Shown: positions 10,779 through 64,000 of the stretch, one piece after another | Layout of the letters: each line of letters opens with the position of its first letter | Position numbering within the stretch: position 1 is the first letter of the stretch | Assembly: GCA_004556055.1 (NCBI GenBank) | Contig: SFIW01000001.1 | Span: 58,996-122,995, forward strand | Source of the DNA: Planctomycetaceae bacterium | GTDB taxonomy: Bacteria; Planctomycetota; Planctomycetia; Pirellulales; Thermoguttaceae | Direction: 5' to 3' | Length of the DNA: 64,000 bases | Made by a program: the position numbers and the translations under genes | The notes under the pieces: generated by a model | Database searches by the model: none | The model's input: only the letters and a program-made list of their open reading frames with translations | Told to the model about the DNA's origin: nothing

Positions 10779-11048
10779 GAGCCGCCTTTCTGCAATTATC
10801 GCAACGGCTTTCAGCGCCGCTACAACCGCTCTAAATTCGCGAAATTAAAACGAAGTACGCCATATTATAAGGATTTTCTACTTCTTTGAAAATAGGGTTA
10901 TAGAGATTTGGACGACAAGTAAAGCCCGATAAATCTTCCCCCTTGTAAATAGGGACGCGGTGATAAAATGAGAAGGATGTACTTCGCATAATTTGCTTTC
11001 GACTTTTCGTTTCGAAGCAAACTAAGGCGACTTATTGAAGGCTATGAA

Positions 11049-11408
11049 ATGAAGTATGCGTTGCAATTTAGTATCATTTTGGCCGTCGCCCTCGTCGGCG
11101 AACTCCTGCGGGCTGTAATACCGGCGCCGATACCTGGGAGCGTCTATGGGCTCGTCGTTCTGTTTATCTGTCTGTCGTGCGGGATTATTCGCGTTTCGTC
11201 GATTGAAGATTCTTCGAAGATCTTGCTGGAATTACTTCCGCTGACGCTTGTTCCCGCTGCGGTTGGAATCGTTGATTCTCTTGACGTCCTTAAAAGCATG
11301 GCGATTCCCGTCGTTTTGCTCGCAACGATAGGAACTGCGCTCGTAGGCGTAGCCGCCAGCGGCGCTGCGGAAGGGATCATACGTTTTTCGAAGAGGGGAA
11401 AGAAGTGA
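11049..11408 (+). CDS. CidA/LrgA-family holin-like membrane protein
   Basis: 119 aa with 4 hydrophobic helices. Immediately precedes an LrgB-like gene, with a 4-nt GTGA overlap. Confidence 0.75.
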   Translation: MKYALQFSIILAVALVGELLRAVIPAPIPGSVYGLVVLFICLSCGIIRVSSIEDSSKILLELLPLTLVPAAVGIVDSLDVLKSMAIPVVLLATIGTALVGVAASGAAEGIIRFSKRGKK

Positions 11409-12121
11409 ATTCAACTTGGGACGCCTTGAAAGTTCTACCCTACGAAAGTCGTTATCTGTGCTTGCTAGTAACGGTTGGAACGTATTTGATCGGTCGCGCT
11501 ATCCAGCGACGCTATAAGAGCTCTGTTGTCAATCCGATCCTCATTTCCATCGGATGTTCTATCCTTGGTTTGGTCGTGTTTAGAATTGACAACAAGACTT
11601 ATCAACAGGCGACCTCCGGACTCTCGCTTCTGATGACCCCCGCGACGATTTGCCTTGCGGTTCCACTGTATCGTCAATTCGAATTGGTCAAGGCGAATTG
11701 GAGAGCGGTTCTTGGCGCATGTTTGACGGGCGTTCTTTGCAACTTCCTGTTGGTTTGGCTTGTTTCGCGCGCCTTCTGTCTTGAATATGAACAGTATGTG
11801 ACGCTTCTTTCGAAATCGATTACGATCCCTATCGGCGCCGACGTAACGCAAGAGCTCGGCGGGGTAGTCCCGATTACCTGCGGAATCATTTCTTTCACAG
11901 GAATTATGGGAAATGTTTTAGGTTCGTCGATCATGAGCCGTTTGGGTATTGTCTCGCCCCTTGCTCAAGGGCTTGGAATCGGCGTCAGTTCCCACGCGAT
12001 GGGGACGGCGAAGGCGCTTGAACTGGGGGAGACGCCAGGCGCCTTCAGCGGACTCGCGATCGGTCTAACGGGCGTTTGCACGGTTCTATTAGCTCCCCTT
12101 GCGGCGTCGCTTCCCTTATGA
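11405..12121 (+). CDS. LrgB/CidB-family membrane protein
   Basis: 238-aa polytopic protein. The GTG start overlaps the stop of the preceding gene, the classic LrgAB pairing. Confidence 0.75.
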   Translation: MNSTWDALKVLPYESRYLCLLVTVGTYLIGRAIQRRYKSSVVNPILISIGCSILGLVVFRIDNKTYQQATSGLSLLMTPATICLAVPLYRQFELVKANWRAVLGACLTGVLCNFLLVWLVSRAFCLEYEQYVTLLSKSITIPIGADVTQELGGVVPITCGIISFTGIMGNVLGSSIMSRLGIVSPLAQGLGIGVSSHAMGTAKALELGETPGAFSGLAIGLTGVCTVLLAPLAASLPL

Positions 12122-12176
12122 CGAAGGATCAAATTTAACAAACAAAACCTCTTTATCTTGAAAGGTGTTGTAGCTT

Positions 12177-12845
12177 ATGTCGAATCGTTTCGTAGCGGCG
12201 AAGCGCGTGGCGCTTTGCGCTCTCGGAATTTTATTAGTGAGTTTTGGCGTTGCCTTGACGGCGAGTAGTAATCTTGGAACGTCCCCGATCTCTTCTGTCG
12301 CGTGGGTGGCGCACTGCGTTTCGGTCGAATCGGACTACTTACCTCGACTCACATTCGGAACGACAACTCTCATACTCAATTTACTCTTTTTCTTCGTCCA
12401 ATGGGCGATACAAGGGCGGTCTTTTGGGAAACTTCAATTCTTACAGATTCCCTGTACCTTTCTTTTCGGAATTCTGATCGACCTAAGCATGGCTTTATGC
12501 GCGTACCTCCCCGCGTCGTATTATCCGCTCAAGGTCATGGAGGTTGTCGTTGGATGCGCGTTCGTCGCAATGGGTTTGGCTTGCGAATTCGCCGCCGACG
12601 TCCTCTATCTCCCAGGAGACGGCGTCGTCAAGACGCTTGCAAACGCCATTAAATTGAAGATGGGCGTTATGAAGATTACTTTTGACGCGTTTCTCACCGT
12701 CTCCGCCGCCCTGATTTCCTTTCTTTTCATTGCGAAAGTTGTGGGGATTCGGGAAGGAACGTTGATCTCAGCCTTTGCGGTGGGATTCTTTTTGCGCCTC
12801 TTGCAGCCGACCTTGGATAAATTGCGCGTTTTGACGCGTCGTTAG
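12177..12845 (+). CDS. polytopic membrane protein (YczE/YitT-like, assignment tentative)
   Basis: 222 aa with about 6 TM helices. Has the LGTSPISSV and LPGDG motifs typical of this family. Confidence 0.5.
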   Translation: MSNRFVAAKRVALCALGILLVSFGVALTASSNLGTSPISSVAWVAHCVSVESDYLPRLTFGTTTLILNLLFFFVQWAIQGRSFGKLQFLQIPCTFLFGILIDLSMALCAYLPASYYPLKVMEVVVGCAFVAMGLACEFAADVLYLPGDGVVKTLANAIKLKMGVMKITFDAFLTVSAALISFLFIAKVVGIREGTLISAFAVGFFLRLLQPTLDKLRVLTRR

Positions 12846-12958
12846 TCCCCGCTTTCTTGCTTTTCCCGGCGTTGCCCGGTATATTTTCTTTAAATAGCGG
12901 ATCGTATCGAAGTGCGATCGTTTTTAGCTCCATGTTGTGAAGAGAAAGCGAGTTTTCA

Positions 12959-15163
12959 ATGCTGTGGAATACTGGAATTCGACGCGTTGCGTTATGGACG
13001 ATCGGCGTTTTAGCGGCGTTCGGTAGTTGCAGCGCGGCGCTAGCGCAAGACGCGACTCAAAAAGCGGAGAAGGTCGAAACGATCTTTGCCGATTTTAACG
13101 GGAACGATTACGGAGATTGGAAAGTTGAAGGGAGCGCCTTTGGCGACGCCCCCGTGAAAGGAACGCTTCCCGGACAAATGCAAGTTTCAGGCTTTATCGG
13201 CGACGGTCTCGTCAATTCATTCTATGGCGGGGACAAAGCAACCGGAAAGATGACTTCTCCCGAATTCCAGATTGCCCGAGATTATATCAACTTCTTGATC
13301 GGCGGTGGCGGAGTTCCCGGCGTTTGCCTTGAGCTCGTCGTCGACGGGGAAGTCGTCCGCAAGGCGTCGGGGCCCAACCTTGTACCCGGCGGAACGGAAG
13401 CTTTGGAGTGGAGCTCGTGGAACGTCGCTGATTTGAAGGGGAAAAAGGGCTTTTTCCGCATCGTCGACGAAGCGACCGGCGGTTGGGGACATATCAACGT
13501 CGACGAGATTTCCTTCAGCGATAAACGGCGCGGATTTGTCGAGTTGACGCGCGATTTGAACGTCTCGGGGCGCTATTTGACTTTGCCAATTAAGACGGGT
13601 GGCGCGGAGTCGTGGGTGCGGATCGAATGCGACGGCAAGGTTGTTCGCGAATTCACTGCGGCGATTTCTTCCTCGAATGACGAGAAGAAACCCGGCGACT
13701 TCGTTTCCTACGTCGATATGGCTCCGTATCGCGGCCAAAAGATTCGCGTCGTTGTCGAACGAATTCCCGCCGATTGCGAACTGGCTCCCTTTGGATTCGA
13801 AGAAGAATTCCATCATGGCGAAGTTGCGTACGGAGAAAAATATAGGCCGCAATTCCACTTTTCACCGCGCGTTGGGTGGATGAACGACCCGAATGGACTC
13901 GTTTTCCACGACGGCGTTTACCATCTTTTCTACCAGCACAATCCGATGAGCGTCAACTGGGGGAATATGACTTGGGGACATGCTGTTAGCCCCGATCTAC
14001 TTCACTGGACGGAAGTTGCCGACGCGCTTTATCCCGACGAACTTGGCACGATCTTTTCAGGAAGCGGGGCCGTAGACGTCAACAATACGACCGGTTTTCA
14101 GAAGGATCCCAACGGCTCTGCGCCTCTTGTTTTCATGTTTACCTACAATGGGCCGAGCATGCGCTATGGCAACCTTGCTTCTCAAGCGCTCGCCTATTCT
14201 CTGGACGGCGGCAAAACGCTCGTGAAATACGAAGGGAATCCAACGATCCCACATATCGTCGGCGGAAACCGCGACCCCAAAATTTTTTGGCACGATCCTT
14301 CTCAAAAGTGGGTATGCGCTCTCTATCTCGACGGAGAGGACTACGCGCTCTTCGGTTCGAAGGACTTGAAGAAGTGGAATGAATTATGCCGCATCGAGCG
14401 ACTTGGTTGTTCAGAATGTCCTGATATTTTCGAACTTGCGATCGACGGCGACGAAAATAATAAGGCCTGGGTGTTCTGGGGTGGAAATGGCAAATACCTT
14501 GTCGGCGATTTTGACGGACGCGAGTTTAAGAGTCGTACCGCTCCTCTTGACGCCAAATGGGGCGGCAACGACTACGCCGCGCAGACCTATTCCGACACGC
14601 CCGGACGTCGCATCCAGTTTTCATGGATGCAAGGAGGCGTTTATCCCGATAGCCCCTTCAATCAGCAGTTCACCGTGCCTCGCGAGTTGACCCTTCGTTC
14701 GACTGCGGACGGACCGCGCCTTTGCATTAACCCGGTCGTTGAAGTTGAAACCTTGAGAGGAAACGCTCTGCAACTTCAAAAGTCTGGATCCGCCGCCGAT
14801 TTTACGCTCGTTCCCCAAGAGGGCGATTCGAAAGATTACGAACTTCTCGACTGCGAAGCGGTAATTACGCTTGGCGACGAGCCTGCCGTCGTTGAACTGC
14901 GCGGACGTAAAATCTTGCTTGATCCCGCTGAGAAAAAGATGACCCACGACGGCGTCGTCGCGCCCCTCGAAGTCGTTGACGGAAACGTGAAGTTGAGGTT
15001 GATCCTCGATCGCGTTTCGCTCGAAATTTTTGCGAACGACGGCCTTTCTCAAATTGCCAAATGTTTCGTGCCTGAAGATGAAAACGACGCGCCGTTATTG
15101 CGCGTGCAGGGCGCCAAGGAGGCAAAAGCGACTATTTGGCCGATGAAGAGCGTTTGGAACTGA
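12959..15163 (+). CDS. secreted glycoside hydrolase family 32 (fructan/sucrose hydrolase type) with an N-terminal accessory module
   Basis: Signal peptide. GH32 catalytic signatures WMNDPNG, RDP (GGNRDPKIFW) and EC (CSECPDIFEL). About 290 aa of extra N-terminal sequence. Confidence 0.85.
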   Translation: MLWNTGIRRVALWTIGVLAAFGSCSAALAQDATQKAEKVETIFADFNGNDYGDWKVEGSAFGDAPVKGTLPGQMQVSGFIGDGLVNSFYGGDKATGKMTSPEFQIARDYINFLIGGGGVPGVCLELVVDGEVVRKASGPNLVPGGTEALEWSSWNVADLKGKKGFFRIVDEATGGWGHINVDEISFSDKRRGFVELTRDLNVSGRYLTLPIKTGGAESWVRIECDGKVVREFTAAISSSNDEKKPGDFVSYVDMAPYRGQKIRVVVERIPADCELAPFGFEEEFHHGEVAYGEKYRPQFHFSPRVGWMNDPNGLVFHDGVYHLFYQHNPMSVNWGNMTWGHAVSPDLLHWTEVADALYPDELGTIFSGSGAVDVNNTTGFQKDPNGSAPLVFMFTYNGPSMRYGNLASQALAYSLDGGKTLVKYEGNPTIPHIVGGNRDPKIFWHDPSQKWVCALYLDGEDYALFGSKDLKKWNELCRIERLGCSECPDIFELAIDGDENNKAWVFWGGNGKYLVGDFDGREFKSRTAPLDAKWGGNDYAAQTYSDTPGRRIQFSWMQGGVYPDSPFNQQFTVPRELTLRSTADGPRLCINPVVEVETLRGNALQLQKSGSAADFTLVPQEGDSKDYELLDCEAVITLGDEPAVVELRGRKILLDPAEKKMTHDGVVAPLEVVDGNVKLRLILDRVSLEIFANDGLSQIAKCFVPEDENDAPLLRVQGAKEAKATIWPMKSVWN

Positions 15164-54450: not shown

Positions 54451-55026
54451 ATGCGACATAGAAGAATTGGACGTAAATTTGGGCGCAATCCTAATCATCA
54501 GCGCGCCCTTCTGCGCAATCTCGCGATCTCGTTGATCCTCACGGAACGCGACGTCGAAGATTTCGATACGAAAGAACAGGCTCCGAAAACTGCTGGTCGT
54601 ATCACTACGACTCTTCCCAAAGCCAAGGAACTTCGTCCTTTCATCGAAAAGCTTATTACGAAAGCTGTCCATGCTCAAGCCTCTATCAAAGCGGCTGAGG
54701 AATTGGCCTGCAAAGCTGAAAAGAACACTGAAGAATGGAAGGCTTGGCGCCAAGGCGAAGGTTGGAAAGCTTGGGTTAAAGCTTCAGCTCCCGCTGTCGC
54801 CGCTCGTCGCGCCGTTTACGAAAAACTCAATAATCGTGAGGCCGTAACCCTTCTCTTTGACCGTATCGCTCCTCGTTACGTCGAACGTTGCGGCGGTTAC
54901 ACCCGTATCTACAAGCTCGCTAAGCCGCGTCTCGGCGACGCTGGTAAGCAGGCGATTATCGAGTTCGTCGGTGAAAACGATCGTCGTAATGTCGTCGCCG
55001 CTTCCGTCGTTCCTACCGTTGAATGA
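54451..55026 (+). CDS. rplQ: 50S ribosomal protein L17 (with internal insertion, 191 aa)
   Basis: MRHRRIGRKFGRNPNHQRALLRNL...GGYTRI.KL..R.GD. Confidence 0.93.
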   Translation: MRHRRIGRKFGRNPNHQRALLRNLAISLILTERDVEDFDTKEQAPKTAGRITTTLPKAKELRPFIEKLITKAVHAQASIKAAEELACKAEKNTEEWKAWRQGEGWKAWVKASAPAVAARRAVYEKLNNREAVTLLFDRIAPRYVERCGGYTRIYKLAKPRLGDAGKQAIIEFVGENDRRNVVAASVVPTVE

Positions 55027-55054
55027 TTTCTTCGACCATAAATTTCGGTCTAAT

Positions 55055-55086
55055 AAAGACGCTCGTTTCGGGCGTCTTTTTTATTT
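55055..55086 (+). terminator. intrinsic terminator after rplQ
   Basis: AAAGACGC (55055-55062) / GCGTCTTT (55072-55079) followed by a T-run. Confidence 0.7.
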
Positions 55087-55141
55087 ACTCGGCGATCCAA
55101 GAGCGCTAGGATATTATTTCAACATCTTCTCGGGAAATTTT

Positions 55142-55828
55142 ATGAGCCATTCTTCTTCTTCCGATAAGTATTTTGATTATCTGCAAGCTGTCAAAGATCT
55201 TTGCGGCAATCTTTGCCTGTCGCTTCGCGTCTTTCGTTCGATTAAGATTGACGAAGTCGGCTTCGCTCTTGCTCACGCTCAGAATAAAGATTCTCGATTT
55301 GGAAGATGGGCGTCAATGACCCCGCTTCGCTTTGAAGACGGCGCTCTCGCGACGCGAGTTACCCGACCCGTCAAAGCTCGGCTCCAAGGCAAAGTAATCG
55401 CCGTCGGGACTTCCGAACGCTACTATAAGACTCCTCGCGTCCTTTCGAGGGATGGTAAAACCGAACTCAAATACATTCTGACCATTGTTCAGCCGAGGTT
55501 CCATAATCTTTCCGTAGAAGAGAAAATCGACACTCTCATCCATGAACTCTATCATATCAGCGCCGATTTCAACGGCGACGTCAGACGTTTTCCCGGTAGA
55601 AACTGGCAACACGGTTCCAAAGCGCGCTATAACTTAATTTGCCAGAGCTTGCGTAAGGAATGGCTTCAAAGCGATCCTGAGCCGCGATACTACGAATTCT
55701 TGCAATGGCGTTTCAACGAGTTGTTAGAGCGGTTCGGAGGTATTCGAGGGTATACCTACCCGCAAATCAAGTTGGTCGAAATATCTAGAGAAGAAGCTAT
55801 TCGACTCAATCCCAAGTTGCGACAATGA
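55142..55828 (+). CDS. hypothetical protein with an HExxH motif (putative metallopeptidase)
   Basis: The ATG at 55142 lies downstream of the rplQ terminator. Motif TLIHELYHISADFNGDVRRF. Confidence 0.55.
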   Translation: MSHSSSSDKYFDYLQAVKDLCGNLCLSLRVFRSIKIDEVGFALAHAQNKDSRFGRWASMTPLRFEDGALATRVTRPVKARLQGKVIAVGTSERYYKTPRVLSRDGKTELKYILTIVQPRFHNLSVEEKIDTLIHELYHISADFNGDVRRFPGRNWQHGSKARYNLICQSLRKEWLQSDPEPRYYEFLQWRFNELLERFGGIRGYTYPQIKLVEISREEAIRLNPKLRQ

Positions 55829-55906
55829 CTCTCTGGCGCTAAAATCTTGACATGTTAAATTTTTTTTGCGCTTGCACTGGATAGTTTATTTCACGTTGGT
55901 AGCGAC

Positions 55907-56698
55907 ATGATTATATATGAGGGCGGGCAACTCGATCGCGCTGAATTTTCCGAAATCGTCAAGGACATTAAAACGATTTCCGACCGTCACGGGGCGACTT
56001 TAGTCACAAGCGGTCTGATTCAACCCGAAAAAGGGCTTCGAAACGTCGATTTTTTCTTTTTATTTCGTTCTTTTCCTCATGAATTTTTGCAGAGCGACGT
56101 CGAGGGATACCGAATGATATCCCCTCTTGCGCCGATCGTCGTCATAGCGGGGAAGTTTTGTGAAGGAGAAGATTATCACGGCGAGCTGTTTTCCGGGACG
56201 CGACGCTTTTATGTGGACGACTGGCGTTCTTTTGGACGAGAGGAATTTGAGAATTTCTTCCAGGGGAAGGGACTTTTTATGGAATCGCCCCTTACGCCGA
56301 CGTCAGCGCTTCCAGAATTTCGTATATTTTCACGGCGAGAGGGAGGGGGGAGAGAATCTATTGTGCTTTTGACCGACGATGAGAGCATAGCGACTCTCTG
56401 TCGAGAGACGATCCCTCCGGATACGCTTTGCGCCGTAGGCGGCTTGTTTTCTACGAAGGAGGAGCGCCCGCTTTGTTTGCCTATGAAACCAACGCGCATT
56501 ATAGTCGACGTGGCGGAGCTTTCCGATAGACGACTACCGGGGAAGATTGTCAAGCTTTGCAAACTTTACCCGTCGGCGAGAATAACAATTTGGGGATTTG
56601 CGCCGACCGATTCTGAGCGACGCGCATTCCAGAGTCCTGAGTATGAAGGAAGGGTAAATATCGCCGCCAAGCCCTTTAATCTTTGCGATCTATTTTAG
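55907..56698 (+). CDS. hypothetical protein, receiver (REC)-like C-terminal domain
   Basis: IVLLTDDE ... IIVDVAEL ... ITIWGFAP ... AAKPFNLCDLF follows the order of CheY-like landmarks. The N-terminal half may be a degenerate REC. Confidence 0.45.
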   Translation: MIIYEGGQLDRAEFSEIVKDIKTISDRHGATLVTSGLIQPEKGLRNVDFFFLFRSFPHEFLQSDVEGYRMISPLAPIVVIAGKFCEGEDYHGELFSGTRRFYVDDWRSFGREEFENFFQGKGLFMESPLTPTSALPEFRIFSRREGGGRESIVLLTDDESIATLCRETIPPDTLCAVGGLFSTKEERPLCLPMKPTRIIVDVAELSDRRLPGKIVKLCKLYPSARITIWGFAPTDSERRAFQSPEYEGRVNIAAKPFNLCDLF

Positions 56699-56873: not shown

Positions 56874-57977
56874 ATGCCTGTAGAACGCGAACAGATAGAC
56901 CGAGCCGAACAGATTCGCAACGGACTCGATCAGTTGAAAGTTTCGTTAGACTACGACGCGAAGAAGCACGAGATTGAAGAGCTAGACGCGCAGATGACGG
57001 CGCCTGGCTTCTGGGACGATCAGGAGAAAGCCCAGAGCGTCGTCGCTAAAATCAAGGCGTTGAAGACGCTGGTACGTCCGATGGACGAGATTCTGAGCGA
57101 GCTTGAAGAACTCGACGTTTTTTTTGAGTTGGGACGCGAGGACGAGGAAACTGCGGCGGAAATACCCGCCAAGCTCCAAGAGATTGAAAAGACGCTTGGC
57201 GATTTACAGACGGCCGCGCTTTTGAACGGTCCCTTTGACGCGAACGACGCGATTCTTACGATCAATGCGCGCGACGGCGGAACCGACGCCAACGACTGGG
57301 CGGAGATGCTTTTGCGCATGTATATCAACTGGGCGCAATCGCGCGGTTATCAGGTTGAGCTTCTCGACCGGCAGGACAACGAAGAGGCGGGTATTAACAG
57401 CGCGTCGTTGATGGTGCGCGGGCCGATGGCTTACGGATACTTAAAGAGCGAGATTGGGACGCATCGTCTTGTCCGAATAAGTCCTTTCAACTCGGAAGGA
57501 AAGAGGCAGACGAGCTTTGCCGCAGTCGACGTCAACCCAGACGTCGACGATTCGATCCACGTGGATATCAATCCTGAAGACGTTCGCGAAGACGTATTCC
57601 GTTCGAGCGGAGCCGGCGGTCAGCACGTTAATAAGACGTCGAGCGCGATTCGCTTGACGCATATACCGACGAATACGGTAGTTCAGTGCCAAAACGAGCG
57701 GAGCCAGCATAAAAACCGCGCGACGGCGTGGAAGATGCTTAGGGCGCGTTTGCTTCAGCGCGAGGAAGAAAAACGCGAACAGCAGATGTCCGAGAAATAT
57801 AAGAATCTTTCGAAGGTTGGGTTTGGTTCTCAGATACGAAACTATTTCTTACATCCAGATCAACGCGTGAAGGATTCGCGCACGGGTTATTCCGTCGGTA
57901 ATTTTCACGAAGTTCTTGACGGAGGCGTTCAGCCTTTTATGGAAGAATATCTTCGTTGGCGCGTTAAGACGGATTGA
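56874..57977 (+). CDS. prfB: peptide chain release factor 2 (single in-frame ORF)
   Basis: SPF tripeptide (VRISPFNS) and GGQ (SGAGGQHVNKT). The ATG at 56874 follows GGAGAGAAGAAGG. LKVSLDYDAKK is read in frame. Confidence 0.93.
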   Translation: MPVEREQIDRAEQIRNGLDQLKVSLDYDAKKHEIEELDAQMTAPGFWDDQEKAQSVVAKIKALKTLVRPMDEILSELEELDVFFELGREDEETAAEIPAKLQEIEKTLGDLQTAALLNGPFDANDAILTINARDGGTDANDWAEMLLRMYINWAQSRGYQVELLDRQDNEEAGINSASLMVRGPMAYGYLKSEIGTHRLVRISPFNSEGKRQTSFAAVDVNPDVDDSIHVDINPEDVREDVFRSSGAGGQHVNKTSSAIRLTHIPTNTVVQCQNERSQHKNRATAWKMLRARLLQREEEKREQQMSEKYKNLSKVGFGSQIRNYFLHPDQRVKDSRTGYSVGNFHEVLDGGVQPFMEEYLRWRVKTD

Positions 57978-58058: not shown

Positions 58059-59777
58059 ATGCCTACGTCGCTCTTTCAGTACGAAATGCTGCCGACGTCA
58101 TGGTTTTATCTTTCTTCGATTCTGATCATTGCGCTTTTTTTTCGCTTTAATCGACTAGCAAGCGTCAGAAACCTCGACGTTTTAGGCTTGATAGCGCTGA
58201 CTCCAGGTTTAGTTTATGTCGCGATGGGATCGGCGCTCCAGGGTTATCTATGGCTTTTTGTCGTCGGAGCGTTCATTTTTGTTCGATTGACGCTTGACGT
58301 TTTCTTTTGTCGACGTCCGATCCTTTCTCCGAACTTAAATTTTGAAGGATTGGCGTTTTCGTGCGTGGCGTCTTGCGCGTTTTTGATTCCGAACCTTTTC
58401 CTAAATCGAGGCGACGCTTGCGAATCTCCGCGCGCCTGGCGTTTGGAGCAGATCCTTGCCGCGTCAGAAGAGTCGCGTCACGAAGAGACCAAGAAAACGG
58501 TCTGGCCCGGCTATCCGCCGTTTCTTCAAGCGACCCAAGACGTAAACCGTTTCTTTTCACCGTCGCAAACCGCGTGGAAACGCGCCGTTACCGAGGCGTT
58601 GATTCGCAAACAATCGGAAGACGAACTGAATCTTTTCGGTTTTACGATCCGCGTCGGTTCAGAACGGGAGAAAAAGAGACCCGCGGCTCGCGCGGTGCGT
58701 TGGGCGTCGGGCGCTTCGGAGGAGAGCTTTTACGATCTGAATCGTTCGGAGCTAGAAGACTCGCAATTCGATTCGGACGATTACAGACCGCAAGGTTTGA
58801 ACGGAGTGGAACCTGCGGCGTCAATCCCGACGGCGGAAACGACGCCGCAAGCGACGCGCATGGGAGACGAGGAGACAGACGACGTTTTTTCTCGATCGTC
58901 GGGGATTCGAACGCCGCAAATCGGCGTCGAAGGGGGCCGTTCTTCAAATTTAGAGACTGAGGAAGAGCTCGGTTCGGAACGGATCAAAGCGGGCGATTCC
59001 GCCACCTTCCGCTGGCAGCCCCTTTCTCAAGAGGGATTGCTCCTTGTTCTTTGCGTGATCTTTTTGCAACTTGGGATCATTGCGACGATCGTCTTGATCG
59101 GTCATGTTCATTTTGGTTCCCTTCAAGCGGGGCTTGCCGCGGCGCTCCTATACCTTCTCCACCCCTATATCAATCAGTTTACCGGTCGTCTCGATCATAT
59201 TGTCCCCGCGCTTTTGCTCCTCTTAGCGATCCTCCTCTATCGCCGTCCCTTCCTTTCAGGCTCCGCGCTCGGAGCCGCGGGCGTCCTGGTCTTTTATCCT
59301 TTTTTTCTCTTCCCATTATGGATCGGGTATTATTGGCGAAAGGGATTGGGACGTTTCCTTACGGGAAGTAGCGCGGTGATTCTCACGTTGTCTGTCGGAC
59401 TTCTCCTTTATCCGGTGGAAGGCGTCAGTTTTGGAGAGTCTTTGGCGTTGACTTACGGTTGGCATTCGATTTTTTTGGCGGACGCCGACGGTATATGGGA
59501 GTATTTACCGCGATTTTACAGGATTCCGATCATATCCCTTTTTGGGGTATTTTGTTTTGGTTACTCTCTTCTTATTCAGCAGAAAACGCTTGGTTCGCTC
59601 ATGTCCTTGTCCGCTGCGTTAATGCTTGGCGCGCAATTCTGGATGGGGCGTCAGGGGGGATTGTATATGGCGTGGTATCTCCCGCTGATTATATTGACGA
59701 TATTTCGTCCCAACCTTTCAGATCGAACGGCGACGGCAGCCGTTGTCGATTTGCCAGGCGCGGAGGGAACGACTTGA
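58059..59777 (+). CDS. polytopic membrane protein with a central acidic disordered region (function unknown)
   Basis: 572 aa. AGGAG before the ATG. N-terminal TM cluster, about 180 aa of charged linker, and a C-terminal bundle of about 8 TM helices. Confidence 0.6.
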   Translation: MPTSLFQYEMLPTSWFYLSSILIIALFFRFNRLASVRNLDVLGLIALTPGLVYVAMGSALQGYLWLFVVGAFIFVRLTLDVFFCRRPILSPNLNFEGLAFSCVASCAFLIPNLFLNRGDACESPRAWRLEQILAASEESRHEETKKTVWPGYPPFLQATQDVNRFFSPSQTAWKRAVTEALIRKQSEDELNLFGFTIRVGSEREKKRPAARAVRWASGASEESFYDLNRSELEDSQFDSDDYRPQGLNGVEPAASIPTAETTPQATRMGDEETDDVFSRSSGIRTPQIGVEGGRSSNLETEEELGSERIKAGDSATFRWQPLSQEGLLLVLCVIFLQLGIIATIVLIGHVHFGSLQAGLAAALLYLLHPYINQFTGRLDHIVPALLLLLAILLYRRPFLSGSALGAAGVLVFYPFFLFPLWIGYYWRKGLGRFLTGSSAVILTLSVGLLLYPVEGVSFGESLALTYGWHSIFLADADGIWEYLPRFYRIPIISLFGVFCFGYSLLIQQKTLGSLMSLSAALMLGAQFWMGRQGGLYMAWYLPLIILTIFRPNLSDRTATAAVVDLPGAEGTT

Positions 59778-59845
59778 AAAGAACGGCTCTGGGGATATAT
59801 TTAGCGTTTAGGGGTATCGCGACAGGGCGTTGAATCGGTCGTCTT

Positions 59846-62800
59846 TTGGTAGTGAATTTTCGCACGGGGAAAAGAATAGTGAAAGAACGAAAAACGAGAC
59901 AGACCAAGACGACAATCTACGATTGGCTTATGATTCAATGGGCGCGCGAGTGCGAAGAAAATCGTCTGTTTCGTCTGCCCGAGACGACAGACGTCTCAAG
60001 CGAACGCGATTCAGAAGGGCGTTTTGTCGATCCGACGTCGTTTTTGAGCGTTCGAGCCGAATCGGCTCTTAACGCGCTTGGAATCTCAGCGCGGTCTTGG
60101 GTCGAGCGCGCCGGGTGGATTTGTCGCGGGACATTCTTTTTCACAATAGCGTTGGGAGCTTTAGCTTTTCCCTTCGCGCGCGTTGAGACGATCCTTGGGA
60201 ACGGAGTCAACCTTGCCGGTCCCTTTCTCTTCTTTCTTTTAACGCAGCTCTTCTTTTTGTCGTGCGCCTTGGTTTTTCTTGTAATCTTGCTGATTTCCCT
60301 TGCTTGCAGGCGACTTTTGGGGAGAGGGCGTTCGGCCACATGGGGCGAAAGGGTTGCGATTCTACTTTCGGGTCTTGTTGGCCGGGTCGCAATTTGGGTT
60401 TTTCATCATGTGATTCCGATGACGTCTTCTTTTTTCGGCGCGCGATTTCGGGAACGATTCGGCTGGCATAAACACAGCGGAGCCGCGCGCCGCGCGCGTT
60501 TGGACGATCCAGAAAGCGTCCAAAGGGAAGAAGAGGCGGGACGACGTCTTCGCGAGGGAGGGGCGTTATTTTGGAATATGCTCTTTTCACGGGCGCAAGT
60601 TGCGGGACGTTGGAGTTGCGTTTTAACTCATTCGTTTTGGGCGTCTTGCTCCCTGTGCGTTCTTGTGATCCTTGCGGCGCGAATGCAGGGGAACCGTTAT
60701 GATTACTGTTGGCACACTTCTCTTGAAGACGAGAGGGTAGTTAAAGCGGGAGTCGACTTCCTTGGCGCGCCAATAGCCGCGCTAGGGGGGCGCGTACCCT
60801 CTGCCGTCGACGTCGAGGCGCTTTTTTCAGACGATCTTAACGCGTCGAAGCATAAAGTCGGCGTTGGAGGGAAGAACGCGCCGGTTGACGAATCCGTCGC
60901 TACGCGTCAGACCGCTGCGGCGACGCGATCACGCTGGTCGTATTTTTTGCTGTCTCTTGTCTTTATTTGGTGCGTTGTCCCGCGCGTTCTTTTCGCTCTC
61001 TTGTACTATTACCTCTACAAAAAGGCGCTGAACGATTATCGTCCCGATTTCCGCGAGTCATATTTTCGAGAGATTTTGGCGGAGGCGGAAGATTATTCAA
61101 CGACGACTCTCGCTGCGGAACGAAAAGACGACGCAACCTTGGCCGCCATTGAAGGCGTCGAGGAAGAAAAGGCGCCGATTGCGGAGCCTTCGCGCCCGAT
61201 CTGGAAGTCTCAACCCAAGATCGAGGAGGTTGTCGCTTCCATAAAGACGACGCCGGAGCCTGATAGCGATAATCGTCCAGCGTTGATTGAAGAGGAGAAA
61301 ACGGAGGCGGAACAAGCGAAGGAGCTCCCTCAAGTTGCGCCTGTCGAGCCCCAAAAAGAGAATTCCGCTTTCACGTCCGCGACGCGTCCAATGCAAGCGT
61401 CCCTTCCGGCGCTTGACGACGGGGACGGGACGAAGTCTATTTTGACGGAAATCCACGACGATTCGAAAGAAGGAGCGGCGGAAGAGGAAGTTCTTCAAGA
61501 CGCGACGCCGGAACCTGTTCTTTGCGTCGATAATGAAAGCGCAACGCGCGTCGGCGATCAAGAAGAGACGGAGGAGCCGATCTCCAACGACGTTTCCGAA
61601 GAATCCGCCGACGTTGTAGAGTCAACGCCGCCCGTCGACGTCTTGCGTCAAGAGGAGACTCAAAGTCGCCTTCAAAGCGCGCTAGTAAAACTGTCGACCG
61701 CTTTCGGCGCGCCCGAGAAGGAATCTTCCAAACTCGCATTTTCCTACGACTCCACGATTTCCCCCGAGCTCTTCGGAAAACTCCTGCATTGCCGCGACGC
61801 CTCCCGTCTTTTCGGCGACATAGCGAGCGAGCCCGCGCTGAAACGTAGCCTGAAAGCGCTTCTTGACTCCGTCGGAACGGAAATTGATCTATGCGTGATC
61901 GGCGTCGACGTGGGTCTTTCTCCCGCGAGACATTTTGTTCGTTTTCTCCGCGACGATCTCTTCCCGAAACTGACCTCCGCGCGTATTGTCTTAGTGGCGT
62001 CTGGGGGCGAACGGATGAGAAAACGTTTTGCTACTTCACCGTCGGCGATTTCTCAACGTCTTGAAGATTGGACTAAGACGATTGCGGCGATTAAGGAGAC
62101 GTCGGGACGAGACATAGAACCCGTTTTTTCCTACGACTCCGAACTCGATTTGCCCGAGGAGCGTCAGCGCCTTGAGAGAATCTTGGAAGGCGCGGAAGAA
62201 ACATCAGCGTCCGATGGAAAACGAACGCTGGAGAAATGGGACGCGGCGACTGAACGCATCGAGAACGCTTGTCGCGAGATTTTCTCAGAGGGAGACGAAG
62301 AGGGTTTGAACGAGGAGTCGACGCGTCTTCGCGCGAGCGTTCTCTGCGCGGAGATCTTTTCCATTTATCGAGAAGAGACGGCTCGTACGACGCGACTTTT
62401 GGCGAAAGAGAACGTCGACGGCGGAACGCTTTGGAAGAGTCTCGCCGAGGGCGCGCGCAACATTTCAAGCGAAGCGGGGAAGAGCTTCGTTTCGCAGGCG
62501 GAAAAACTGGGTCTCTCTCCCGACTATCTGGGAGAACGTCTGTTGTACGCGTGTCGGCTGGGGGATCGTTTCCGGTCTTTCACGGGGAAGTTGAGTCCGA
62601 AATGCGGGCTCGCCGCGGCGACCTTGGGCGTGGCGGCGCCGTGCGTCGTCGCGTTGTCTCCTCTTCTGGGGGGCGCGGTCACCGCGACGACAATCCTTTC
62701 GTCCATCGGAGCGCTTGGGGGCGTTCTTCCAACTTCTCTCGCGTCGGGTATGGTTACGGGCGTTTTGGGGTCGATGGCTCCTGAAGCGCTGCGTCATGTT

Positions 62801-63088
62801 GGGAGTAAAATTGCCGCAAAGCTTCGCGCGAACGGAACTGAAACGGAGGGGGCGACGCCCGAGGAACGCCTAGAGGAGACGAATACGGAGTCCGTTAGCG
62901 CGTTGGCGCGAGCGACGACGGCGTGGAGCGTGGTTCTGGAGCTACAGGGATTTGACGAAGCGCAGATCTCCGAGAGGGCGGCTCTTATCATGGAGCCTCT
63001 GGAAAGCTCGTCCCTTTCCACCCTCGAAGAGATTAAGAGCGCGATTTCCGCCGCGCGCGAGATTTTATTAGCGACTCCAAAGGTATAA
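59846..63088 (+). CDS. giant membrane protein, DUF2868-like (tentative)
   Basis: 1080-aa ORF. Start uncertain (TTG 59846, GTG 59879 or ATG 59930). About 5-6 TM helices, about 210 aa of acidic linker, a globular region with IDLCVIGVDVGLSPARHFVRFL, and a Gly/Ala-rich hydrophobic hairpin near the C-terminus. Confidence 0.6.
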   Translation: MVVNFRTGKRIVKERKTRQTKTTIYDWLMIQWARECEENRLFRLPETTDVSSERDSEGRFVDPTSFLSVRAESALNALGISARSWVERAGWICRGTFFFTIALGALAFPFARVETILGNGVNLAGPFLFFLLTQLFFLSCALVFLVILLISLACRRLLGRGRSATWGERVAILLSGLVGRVAIWVFHHVIPMTSSFFGARFRERFGWHKHSGAARRARLDDPESVQREEEAGRRLREGGALFWNMLFSRAQVAGRWSCVLTHSFWASCSLCVLVILAARMQGNRYDYCWHTSLEDERVVKAGVDFLGAPIAALGGRVPSAVDVEALFSDDLNASKHKVGVGGKNAPVDESVATRQTAAATRSRWSYFLLSLVFIWCVVPRVLFALLYYYLYKKALNDYRPDFRESYFREILAEAEDYSTTTLAAERKDDATLAAIEGVEEEKAPIAEPSRPIWKSQPKIEEVVASIKTTPEPDSDNRPALIEEEKTEAEQAKELPQVAPVEPQKENSAFTSATRPMQASLPALDDGDGTKSILTEIHDDSKEGAAEEEVLQDATPEPVLCVDNESATRVGDQEETEEPISNDVSEESADVVESTPPVDVLRQEETQSRLQSALVKLSTAFGAPEKESSKLAFSYDSTISPELFGKLLHCRDASRLFGDIASEPALKRSLKALLDSVGTEIDLCVIGVDVGLSPARHFVRFLRDDLFPKLTSARIVLVASGGERMRKRFATSPSAISQRLEDWTKTIAAIKETSGRDIEPVFSYDSELDLPEERQRLERILEGAEETSASDGKRTLEKWDAATERIENACREIFSEGDEEGLNEESTRLRASVLCAEIFSIYREETARTTRLLAKENVDGGTLWKSLAEGARNISSEAGKSFVSQAEKLGLSPDYLGERLLYACRLGDRFRSFTGKLSPKCGLAAATLGVAAPCVVALSPLLGGAVTATTILSSIGALGGVLPTSLASGMVTGVLGSMAPEALRHVGSKIAAKLRANGTETEGATPEERLEETNTESVSALARATTAWSVVLELQGFDEAQISERAALIMEPLESSSLSTLEEIKSAISAAREILLATPKV

Positions 63089-63108
63089 GGATTGTTCGGA
63101 GTGTGAGA

Positions 63109-64000
63109 ATGGAAGGCAACGAATCCTATTTAACGCAAGACGAGTTAAATCGAGTCACACCCCTTGTGGTGGCGATCGTCGGACCGACCAACGAGGGTAA
63201 AACGTCGATTCTCCGAACATTGACGAACGATCCTGAGTTCGGGTGCGTGAACGCGTATACGGGGACGACGATACGCGCGGAGATGCAACGCGTTTTTTGT
63301 CGAGGAGCCGCGGAGATTCTGCAATTGATTGACACGCCTGGTTTTCAGACGTCGAGCGAGATTCTGGAGAATGTGACGGAGAATTCTCTGGCGCAAGATC
63401 AGGACGGTGAGTATACGCTTTCCGATATTCTAGCGGCGATTCCGACGGAGGACGAAGATTTTCGTCACGATCTTCGGGCGTGGCGAGAGATCGAGAAGTG
63501 CGACGTGGTCTTGTTTGTCGCGAACATAGCGGAAGATCCCCGACGTTCCCTTTTGAAATCGACAATTACACTCTTACAGCATATCGGTAAGCCGACGCTT
63601 GTCGCGTATAACAATTTAGGAGTCCAAGGGGACGCAGGGGGAACGAGCGCCGATTTTCGGAAAGAATGGGACGCGACGCTCTTTCAGAAGAGATTTTTCC
63701 TGGTTCAGTGTTACGACGCGCACCGTCGCGTTTTTTCGGACGAGGTAGCGCTCTTTGAAAAGCTCGTCGCTTTGTCGCGCGATCCTTTGACGCGCCGCGT
63801 TTTACGAATGGAGTTAGAGGATCGCAAAGCTCGAGAACGACGTCGACTTGAAGAGTCGCGTCGGATCATTGCGGAATTGCTTTTAGACGTGGCGACGTGT
63901 CGTTACGAGGCGTCGAACGTCGACTCTTCGCAGCTCCAAGGTCTTCTCAAGCAGCTTCAAGGGCGATTGACGGAAAGCGTGATGCGCCGTGAGTTGAAGG
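63109..64000 (+). CDS. P-loop GTPase, DUF3482-family-like (partial, runs off the window)
   Basis: Manual translation gives MEGNESYLTQDELNRVTPLVVAIVGPTNEGKTSILRTLTNDPEFG...TGTT...LIDTPGFQ. G1, G2 and G3 are present. Lies 20 nt after the upstream stop. Not in the ORF track because no stop falls inside the window. Confidence 0.75.
   Translation, partial: MEGNESYLTQDELNRVTPLVVAIVGPTNEGKTSILRTLTNDPEFGCVNAYTGTTIRAEMQRVFCRGAAEILQLIDTPGFQTSSEILENVTENSLAQDQDGEYTLSDILAAIPTEDEDFRHDLRAWREIEKCDVVLFVANIAEDPRRSLLKSTITLLQHIGKPTLVAYNNLGVQGDAGGTSADFRKEWDATLFQKRFFLVQCYDAHRRVFSDEVALFEKLVALSRDPLTRRVLRMELEDRKARERRRLEESRRIIAELLLDVATCRYEASNVDSSQLQGLLKQLQGRLTESVMRRELK

Follow-up and report, generated by a model that had tools for sequence, protein, structure and literature searches.

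An enlarged DUF2868 membrane protein and a DUF3482 GTPase encoded as a two-gene unit in a Planctomycetaceae genome

The DUF2868/DUF3482 gene pair

We analyzed the 3' end of a 64,000-nucleotide stretch of DNA from a Planctomycetaceae bacterium (GenBank assembly GCA_004556055.1, contig SFIW01000001.1, positions 58,996 to 122,995; this whole stretch is hereafter called the window), where a first-pass annotation had described three open reading frames (ORFs) on the forward strand downstream of the release factor gene prfB, with gaps of 81, 68 and 20 nucleotides (nt). The ORFs lie where they had been placed and the gaps are correct, the figure of 68 nt applying if ORF2 starts at the TTG codon at 59846. 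ORF2 (59879..63088, + strand, with a GTG start inferred from homologues) encodes a long-form DUF2868 membrane protein of 1069 amino acids (aa), and ORF3 (63109..64000, + strand) encodes the first 297 of the 513 aa of a DUF3482 GTPase; ORF3 is indeed cut by the window edge, and the motifs GPTNEGKTS, TGTT and DTPG reported for it are all present. An exact look-up of ORF1 and ORF2 found metagenome contigs which are identical to the window and reach past its end, and on these contigs (e.g., L007; numbers with L and P are our labels for loci and proteins, respectively) the full GTPase is 513-515 aa long.

Comparison with Pfam placed ORF2 and ORF3 in the families that had been proposed for them, with all matches above the curated cut-offs. 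ORF2 matched DUF2868 (PF11067) with 78.5 bits (cut-off 26.8; E = 8.8e-22), and the ORF3 fragment matched both MMR_HSR1 (PF01926; 52.3 bits, cut-off 21.9, E = 7e-14) and DUF3482 (PF11981; 41.3 bits, cut-off 29.2, E = 1.7e-10). The full GTPase from the identical contig L007 matched DUF3482 over residues 195-451 with 126.7 bits (E = 1.6e-36). No NCBIfam model reached its cut-off for the proteins of the window. Related proteins are named DUF2868 or DUF3482 domain-containing in metagenome-assembled genomes (MAGs) of Thermoguttaceae and Planctomycetia, which places the window in a Thermoguttaceae-like planctomycete of the gut or rumen. No functional study of DUF2868 or DUF3482 was found in the full-text literature, where papers naming the domains refer to hypothetical proteins only; this agrees with the earlier statement that no function had been published.

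The distribution of the pair was assessed by a scan with the GTPase alignment against one genome per GTDB species, which yielded at least 205 relatives, the best 80 loci of which were examined. These best 80 loci included ones from Neisseria gonorrhoeae, N. meningitidis, Bordetella, Achromobacter, Moraxella, Stutzerimonas/Pseudomonas, a Desulfocapsaceae MAG, Planctomycetota, Phycisphaerales and Puniceicoccaceae, with Verrucomicrobiota among the phyla that carry the pair. A same-strand DUF2868-matching ORF abuts the GTPase gene in 69 of the 80 loci, often with an overlap of 4 or 8 nt, and the other 11 mostly have a DUF2868 ORF within 1 kb or no upstream sequence. The DUF2868 gene comes first, with the DUF3482 GTPase gene directly downstream; the 20-nt gap between them in the window includes, as read from the sequence, a Shine-Dalgarno-like GGAG (63098..63101, + strand) 7 nt 5' of the ORF3 ATG. 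No third conserved gene was found around the pair in the 80 genomes, the largest neighbour cluster comprising 11 loci that represent local synteny in the Alcaligenaceae. Overall, these data show that ORF2 and ORF3 are a two-gene unit, which is probably translationally coupled; such a unit had been described as recurrent in Proteobacteria, and its occurrence extends across phyla beyond them. With at least 205 GTDB species-representative stretches, the pair ranks among the broadly distributed conserved two-gene units on which experiments have yet to be reported.

The window encodes an expanded version of this unit, as had been suspected. Proteobacterial DUF2868 proteins have 450-530 aa, as compared to 1052-1080 aa (depending on the start codon) for ORF2. 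The form of about 1000 aa is restricted to Planctomycetia/Thermoguttaceae, to which all 32 long-form homologues belong, and intermediates of about 737-753 aa occur in other Planctomycetota (e.g., L058, L078). The first-pass annotation had also called a membrane-anchored GTPase machine attractive for a lineage with elaborate membrane invaginations; a link to the invaginations of planctomycetes is not supported, because the same pair is a core chromosomal feature of Neisseria, Bordetella, Moraxella and Pseudomonas, which do not have such membranes, and is equally conserved in Neisseria, Bordetella and Pseudomonas.

A plasmid search returned only chromosomes mislabelled as plasmids and one megaplasmid, so that the pair was not found on true plasmids; PLSDB lists two Neisseria gonorrhoeae chromosomes among its plasmids. 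Homologues also occur in 15 phage-database records, i.e., an unannotated record titled "Pseudomonas phage Y10" (OQ572411.1), whose DUF3482 GTPase is 80% identical to the one from Stutzerimonas, and 14 Moraxella "phage Mcat" records (KR0936xx), in which the GTPase gene is mostly close to the record end. As these records are mostly prophage predictions with the match near the record end, the homologues are probably host flanks. The closest genome record to the window (L010, CAVGEG010000028.1; GTPase 83% identical) carries this planctomycete-type locus under the name of an actinobacterial genus, Paratractidigestivibacter sp.; the contig is probably mis-binned. A frameshift or an assembly error divides its DUF2868 gene into two ORFs (340 and 747 aa).

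ORF2 had been described as encoding 1080 aa. Its end at 63088 and the ORF from TTG 59846 exist as described, but the likelier product has 1069 aa. Three start codons were considered, i.e., TTG 59846 (1080 aa, 68-nt gap to ORF1), GTG 59879 (1069 aa, 101-nt gap) and ATG 59930 (1052 aa), and public gene calls differ between the latter two. GTG 59879 is most likely the true start, because the close homologues P0001 and P0004 begin (MKERKTRQTKT) at the codon that corresponds to it and because the motif TKTxxxDW, which is conserved across the ORF2 family, lies 5' of ATG 59930. In exact-sequence look-ups the ORF2 protein read from the TTG start had no match; the ATG form and ORF1 did match. ORF2 residue numbers given below follow the 1052-aa form from ATG 59930, on which the alignment and the structural model were built.

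Architecture of ORF2 and of the GTPase

The AlphaFold2 (AF2) model of ORF2 has a mean predicted local distance difference test score (pLDDT) of 65.7, with marked differences between regions. The N-terminal region (59930..61102, + strand), delimited by hydropathy, a pLDDT of 80-90 and invariant columns, comprises a conserved cytoplasmic head, four to five transmembrane helices and a signature loop (MQGNRYDYCWxTSLEDE..., residues 251-335) between the last two transmembrane helices. The earlier description of a transmembrane cluster at this end thus stands, but with four to five helices rather than five to six. Hydropathy and charge suggest four membrane-spanning helices and one amphipathic helix, with the N- and C-termini in the cytoplasm; by the positive-inside rule, the signature loop is probably exposed on the outer face. 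The transmembrane helices hold invariant polar residues, and a profile of this N-terminal core (A2) matches about 50 proteobacterial partners of the GTPase.

The N-terminal region is followed by the acidic, Pro-rich linker that had been noticed in the sequence (residues 392-565; 61103..61624, + strand). This linker spans 174-213 aa depending on its delimitation, with 24-26% Asp+Glu, 8.5% Pro and a net charge of about -30, and is predicted to be disordered (pLDDT below 50). As it stands, ORF2 matches positions 13-198 of the DUF2868 profile, but when the linker is deleted the match covers positions 14-313 of 315, which is comparable to the canonical proteins of 450-530 aa (positions 4-314). Moreover, hhalign aligned the canonical C-terminus (the C-terminal 120 aa of 43 proteobacterial DUF2868 proteins) to the alpha/beta domain of ORF2 (probability 88%, E = 3.5e-6). 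The linker is therefore an insertion within the DUF2868 domain, and the alpha/beta domain (residues ~595-740; 61712..62149, + strand), modelled as beta-alpha-beta with a pLDDT of 80-90, represents the normal cytoplasmic end of the family. The long linker is missing in L015, L058 and L078.

The strands that bound the alpha/beta domain on either side, KLAFSYDS and EPVFSYDS, are encoded by a 23-nt direct repeat (87% identical; 61731-61753 and 62118-62140). The Asp of both strands is invariant, and a corresponding YDA follows the last strand of the GTPase; the repeat may have arisen by internal duplication or by chance.

Beyond the alpha/beta domain, ORF2 carries a Planctomycetota-specific extension of about 300 aa which is shared by L058 and L078 and is not present in the proteobacterial proteins of 450-530 aa. 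The extension consists of a helical region (residues 768-885; 62231..62584, + strand), modelled with moderate confidence, a Gly/Ala/Pro-rich hydrophobic hairpin (62585..62794, + strand; residues 891-924 by hydropathy and 890-932 in the AF2 model, at low confidence) and a C-terminal helical domain with a W..LELQG motif (62858..63073, + strand; helices 977-1048, pLDDT 76-89). Invariant residues are P890, C892, G900, P904, P911, G915, G940, G947 and P951 in the hairpin region and W999, L1003, E1004, L1005 and Q1006 in the end domain, which is also matched in L055 and L078. The model and the hydropathy scan thus recover the alpha/beta region, the helical region and the Gly/Ala-rich hairpin that had been outlined from the sequence. 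A PDB sequence search with the ORF2 profile returned nothing useful.

To model the GTPase with AF2, we used P0033, a protein 97% identical to that of the window's lineage (pLDDT 82.8; predicted template-modelling score, pTM, 0.82). The model comprises a small G domain of the Era/Der/FeoB type (residues 1-205) with a helical insert (82-130), a stalk of two long antiparallel helices (226-263 and 273-305), a disordered segment rich in charges, a hydrophobic hairpin modelled with low confidence (334-377), a small beta-hairpin with a helix, and C-terminal helices. The membrane segment that had been looked for past the window edge is thus present, as judged by the hydropathy of the full protein. The hydrophobic hairpin is 52% Gly+Ala and has 8 GxxxG motifs, which form a double glycine zipper; G341, G345, G349, G358, G362, G368, G372 and D353 vary little or not at all across 78 sequences including those from Proteobacteria. 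The hairpin should insert in the cytoplasmic membrane.

Motifs G1 to G3 are intact, GxxNxGK[ST], GTT and DTPG being invariant or nearly so in the 78 sequences, and G4 keeps its Asn alone. In G1, the P-loop GPTNEGKTS (63181..63207, + strand), G25, G30 and K31 are invariant and N28 is found in 77 of 78 sequences, while T54 of the G2 motif GTT (63262..63270, + strand) is invariant. The G3 motif DTPG is followed by Phe (63331..63345, + strand), i.e., a hydrophobic residue replaces the catalytic Gln, as is the condition for HAS-GTPases; this position, F79, is Phe in 69 and Leu in 8 of the 78 sequences. N168 (63610..63612, + strand) is a remnant of the G4 motif NKxD, with Asn in 78/78 sequences and no conservation at the K and D positions. 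An Asn in the P-loop is a criterion for K+-dependent GTPases (PMC3466195), and this first Asn is present as N28 (77/78). The position of a second K+-site Asn, five residues past the P-loop Lys, is R36 (Arg in 67 and Ala in 8 of 78). As the first Asn is kept but the second is replaced by Arg, K+ dependence is possible, though not confidently predicted.

The P-loop GTPase could in principle act in ribosome assembly or translation, and the first-pass annotation had named assignment to Era, Der, YihA or a similar GTPase as an outcome that would speak against a membrane module. Among PDB sequences, those of Der, TrmE and Era match it best (E = 4e-18 to 1e-8), the name MMR_HSR1 refers to 50S ribosome binding, and the pair lies in the context of SecY, adk, rpsM, rpsK, rpsD, rpoA, rplQ and prfB. 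These matches, however, are confined to residues 7-130, which hold G1-G3, and the NCBIfam equivalog models for Era, Der, MnmE, HflX, YqeH, YihA and Obg score 12-30 bits against cut-offs of 116-631. ORF3 is on both grounds not a known ribosome-assembly GTPase. Furthermore, Pfam detects no KH or other RNA-binding domain in the full protein, its C-terminal 300 aa are the DUF3482 region with the membrane hairpin, and the gene is tied to one for a membrane protein in 69 of 80 genomes with unrelated contexts. We thus consider a ribosomal role barely credible.

Comparison of the two proteins with each other pointed to a possible relic of a G domain in DUF2868. The canonical DUF2868 C-terminal profile aligned to GTPase residues 130-203 (hhalign, probability 71%, E = 3.8e-5, score 38.4), i.e., to beta4, alpha3, beta5, alpha4 and beta6 in the second half of the G domain. 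A merged profile of the canonical, intermediate and long forms gave E = 7.6e-5 against the whole GTPase and 1.9e-5 against the G domain, as compared to 0.2 and 0.42 in control comparisons with the DUF3482 part and the ORF2 membrane domain, respectively; together, the canonical and merged profiles cover GTPase residues 122-204, with E-values between 2e-5 and 8e-5. The score of 38.4 was not reached by any of 150 column shuffles (maximum 18.5) or 100 block shuffles (maximum 29.5), and the reversed profile scored 13.7. Conserved positions that align are a Pro after beta4, a Trp in alpha4 (W187 in the GTPase, W714 in ORF2) and YDA after the last strand (D203-A204 and D736, respectively). DUF2868 has no equivalent of the P-loop, G2 or G3. 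We give about even odds to the proposition that the alpha/beta domain of DUF2868 is a pseudo-GTPase, i.e., a degenerate G domain without a P-loop.

The C-terminal extension of ORF2 was also compared with the GTPase. Three motif resemblances are collinear between the two, i.e., GLSPDYLGERLL with GFRPSVLNRELL, the two hairpins, and LELQG with HLQTRG. BLASTP of the ORF2 C-terminal half against the GTPase found nothing significant, and hhalign comparisons of this half, or of slices with the helical region, hairpin and end domain, with the GTPase or its DUF3482 part gave non-significant E-values of 0.02-0.4. As the hhalign comparisons were not significant, we do not claim that the extension is a paralogue of DUF3482, despite these resemblances.

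Likeness to known systems and possible function

The pair in the window is a lineage-specific enlarged variant of a known, uncharacterised family. It shares with the proteobacterial pair the gene order, the tight coupling and matches above the cut-offs for both proteins, as well as the core transmembrane helices, the signature loop, the C-terminal alpha/beta domain, the G motifs and the glycine-zipper hairpin. It differs by the 174-aa acidic linker that splits DUF2868, by the extension of about 300 aa, and by the helical insert 82-130 of the GTPase, which is 24-31% identical to the proteobacterial members. The two Pfam DUFs, and the labelling of both genes accordingly in related MAGs, were already known, so the finding in the window itself is modest. 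New here are the exclusion of ORF1 from the unit (see below), the corrected start of ORF2, the recognition of the linker as an intra-domain insertion, the delimitation of the extension in Planctomycetota and the statistical evidence for a G-domain relic in DUF2868. The analysis provides a testable anatomy, i.e., a membrane-seated part, a probable catalytically dead G-like domain, the site of the linker and a set of invariant residues, and the planctomycete long form represents a natural variant which shows what modules can be added.

Structural comparison of the GTPase model with the PDB (Foldseek) gave best matches to Era (1.4e-6), GIMAP7 (9e-6), IniA (1e-5, over 616 aligned columns) and BDLP (2.6e-4), with TM-scores of only 0.2-0.27. 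The ORF2 model was matched best by IniA (4.5e-3), BDLP (0.05) and LeoA (0.075), followed by small GTPases. The modelled GTPase, with its two-helix stalk and hydrophobic hairpin, recalls the bacterial dynamin-like pairs (BDLP, IniA/IniC, LeoA/B/C, Campylobacter DLP1/DLP2, DynA), in which a large membrane-associated GTPase joins its G domain through a helical stalk to a hydrophobic, membrane-inserting tip, and in which two related partners of similar architecture are encoded side by side; such genes are commonly paired in operons (PMC6104087). IniA, BDLP and LeoA show weak whole-chain Foldseek matches to both window proteins. However, the G domain of the window is small and Era-like (~205 aa), the dynamin profiles stay under their cut-offs, the GTPase stalk consists of two helices in a hairpin, after which comes a mixed alpha/beta region, and the DUF2868 partner has no P-loop and is fused to a polytopic membrane domain. 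As dynamin G-domain profiles are not matched at their cut-offs, the likeness to dynamins is one of functional analogy and not of membership.

In GIMAP/AIG1 GTPases, too, helices and a hydrophobic anchor for the membrane come after a small TRAFAC G domain, and GIMAP7 and GIMAP2 are among the best Foldseek matches of the GTPase (9e-6 to 3e-4). The AIG1 model of Pfam, however, scored only 13-14 bits (cut-off 27), and GIMAPs are eukaryotic. GIMAPs are not known to have a DUF2868-like partner.

We propose, with a probability of roughly 40%, that the pair is a membrane-anchored heterocomplex of a GTPase and a pseudo-GTPase which would act on the membrane in a way loosely comparable to dynamins or GIMAPs. 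The DUF2868 G-like domain would dock the GTPase at the membrane as a 1:1 complex. Binding and hydrolysis of GTP, probably activated by dimerisation, would shift the stalk and hairpins relative to the transmembrane domain, and this movement would reshape, tether or stabilise the cytoplasmic membrane, as in bacterial dynamin-like pairs or GIMAPs but without belonging to either. In Planctomycetota, the DUF2868 subunit has gained the helical region, a hydrophobic hairpin of its own and the C-terminal helical domain, and in Thermoguttaceae also the long acidic linker. The gained modules make the planctomycete DUF2868 protein architecturally more like its GTPase partner, which hints at mimicry of that partner.

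A number of results weigh against this proposal. Dynamin_N of Pfam scored 22.2 and 18.8 bits (cut-off 27) and the NCBIfam model DLP_LeoA_gen 10.9 bits (cut-off 325), and in Foldseek the dynamin-like proteins match with low TM-scores (0.1-0.27) and a root-mean-square deviation (rmsd) above 30 A; for the whole-chain matches of the GTPase model to IniA and BDLP, the TM-scores are 0.22 (rmsd ~30 A). The ORF2 model has no Foldseek match at E <= 1e-3, and none for its transmembrane domain, whose topology is based on hydropathy and charge only. With respect to the pseudo-GTPase, the alpha/beta domain of the window itself showed no significant profile match when compared directly with the GTPase (E = 0.2), so that the link to the G domain depends on canonical proteobacterial sequences as intermediates, and Foldseek matches this domain to flavodoxin-like folds about as well as to G proteins. 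The extension of ORF2 shows no significant similarity to DUF3482 (E = 0.02-0.04), and the Arg at the second K+ site also counts on this side.

The same observations may fit a bolder reading, to which we assign a low probability, in which DUF2868/DUF3482 would be an unrecognised class of membrane GTPase machine distinct from dynamins. Here an Era/FeoB-type GTPase anchored by its glycine-zipper hairpin would heterodimerise with a G-domain relic that lacks the P-loop and sits on a polytopic membrane partner, and the complex would remodel, tether or repair the membrane; in the planctomycete long form, a nearly symmetrical build with two heads would have been kept or formed anew. Since the chromosomes of Neisseria, Bordetella, Moraxella and Pseudomonas carry the pair, this would, if true, represent a new, widely conserved envelope function in major pathogens.

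The type of the G domain also bears on the main alternative, which we consider less likely, i.e., a GTP-gated membrane transporter, channel or sensor in which the DUF2868 transmembrane domain or oligomers of the hairpin would do the work and the GTPase would regulate it, like a FeoB divided over two genes. Glycine zippers are common in oligomeric channels, the invariant polar residues of the ORF2 membrane helices and the conserved loop between the last two of them would suit such a function, and FeoB_N is the second-best G-domain family for the GTPase in Pfam, just below its cut-off (25.5 and 23.8 bits, cut-off 27; E = 1e-5). In FeoB, too, the G domain is of the Era/MnmE class, carries the P-loop Asn typical of cation-dependent GTPases and has a hydrophobic residue behind DxxG. 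This G domain is coupled to a polytopic membrane protein (PMC3153494), an arrangement to which the pair can be likened. In the window, however, the parts are separate polypeptides, no FeoB_C or Gate domain was found in ORF2 or ORF3, the second K+-site Asn is absent, and the GTPase has its own membrane hairpin, which together with the stalk would be superfluous in a simple regulator. ORF2 moreover has only four to five transmembrane helices, no transporter family was matched in Pfam, NCBIfam, PDB sequences or Foldseek, and no substrate-related gene is conserved nearby.

Another alternative is that the pair serves against phage or protects the membrane under stress, as a counterpart of DynA or LeoABC. 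It was suggested by the PADLOC library of defence systems, in which the LeoA and LeoBC models match the N-terminal half of the G domain (E = 3e-10 and 6e-8, respectively). DynA provides a precedent in that it is described as protecting membranes against phage and pore-forming agents, and homologues of the GTPase occur in the 15 phage-database records. We nevertheless regard a defence system as quite unlikely, as the PADLOC matches span only G1-G3, i.e., about 90 of 560-600 profile positions, the phage records are probably host flanks, the pair does not reside on true plasmids, and it is found in most sampled species of whole genera and, in the window, adjoins housekeeping genes. The proposal of a membrane-anchored GTPase/pseudo-GTPase heterocomplex remains the one that we prefer.

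ORF1 and the surroundings of the pair

The first-pass annotation had grouped ORF1 with the pair in a module of three genes. ORF1 (58059..59777, + strand) encodes a polytopic membrane protein of 572 aa and is a neighbour of the pair, not a conserved component of the unit; prfB (RF2; 56874..57977, + strand, with PCRF and RF-1 domains as annotated on the identical contigs) lies upstream as a context gene outside the unit. Joint action of the three proteins would be consistent with the common strand, the short gaps and the order prfB-ORF1-DUF2868-GTPase, which is kept in the planctomycete long-form loci L010, L014, L090-L092, L170 and L171, even at 36-37% ORF2 identity (L170, L171). However, a metagenome scan with close ORF1 sequences showed that 77 of 80 loci with an ORF1 homologue do not have the pair downstream, many of them with 4-8 kb of downstream sequence; only the three closest homologues (56-62% identity) do. 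Conversely, ORF1 is not beside the pair in seven planctomycete loci of the long or intermediate form (L011, L013, L015, L172, L173, L058, L078), nor in any proteobacterial locus. As prfB is retained in the same arrangement alongside ORF1, and as this arrangement next to the pair is confined to close relatives in the Thermoguttaceae, we read the conserved order as inherited synteny in one sub-clade rather than functional coupling, and the ORF1/ORF2 gap holds a match to the sigma-70 promoter consensus (TTGAAA-16-TATATT; 59774..59801, + strand). These results largely refute a trio by distribution, making it very improbable; ORF1 and prfB are mere neighbours of the pair, outside the unit. The promoter-like site (L007 5620-5647, offset +54154) is a consensus match only, one of 6 such sites found in 9 kb as compared to 3.1 expected.

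ORF1 itself is polytopic with a central charged segment, as had been described, with transmembrane clusters at residues 10-116 and 321-507 around a charged loop of about 200 aa. Its family is large and independent of the pair, with 953 representative clusters (50% identity) at E <= 1e-3, in Planctomycetota, and no Pfam model; D40, R76, D80, R85 and N92 in the first loop region are invariant, and the motif RxDHxxPAAL...YRRP...FYPxFLLPLW is conserved. Searches of Pfam, NCBIfam and the PDB, the latter including a search with the ORF1 profile, found no match. ORF1 may be a divergent GT-C-type glycosyltransferase: one relative (P0314) scored 24.8 bits for GT87 (cut-off 25), and two others are named DUF2029 by NCBI but without a score. 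The same GT87/DUF2029 comparison gave no match for ORF1 itself or for other members of its alignment (A3). Conserved neighbours of ORF1 are shared by at most 14 of 73 loci.

On the contigs identical to the window, the GTPase gene is directly followed by a convergent DUF4416 gene, so that the transcription unit ends with the GTPase. This gene occupies the same position in several relatives among the Thermoguttaceae (L001 16603-17178, L007 10500-11075, L011, L013, L172); in the window's own lineage it lies 3-4 nt past the GTPase stop and is followed by genes resembling type II secretion pseudopilins (N_methyl/SBP_bac_10). In L171, the gene after the pair (10853-14731) encodes a 1292-aa TIR_2/TPR/Sel1 protein with the architecture of a conflict system, and its counterpart in the window's lineage has 1293 aa and no recorded Pfam hit.

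An Rfam scan of the window from 56.5 to 64 kb found no RNA family, and repeats in the same region were at chance level only. Many bacteria use a programmed +1 frameshift in prfB. In the window, prfB is a single uninterrupted ORF of 367 aa with no sign of such a frameshift, although the frameshift site itself was not looked at. Between rplQ and prfB (54857-56698), the window encodes a 228-aa protein with a weak PhageMetallopep hit (PF18894) and a 263-aa protein with no hit; the two genes are kept in place on all near-identical contigs and form an odd insertion at the end of the ribosomal-protein/rpoA cluster.

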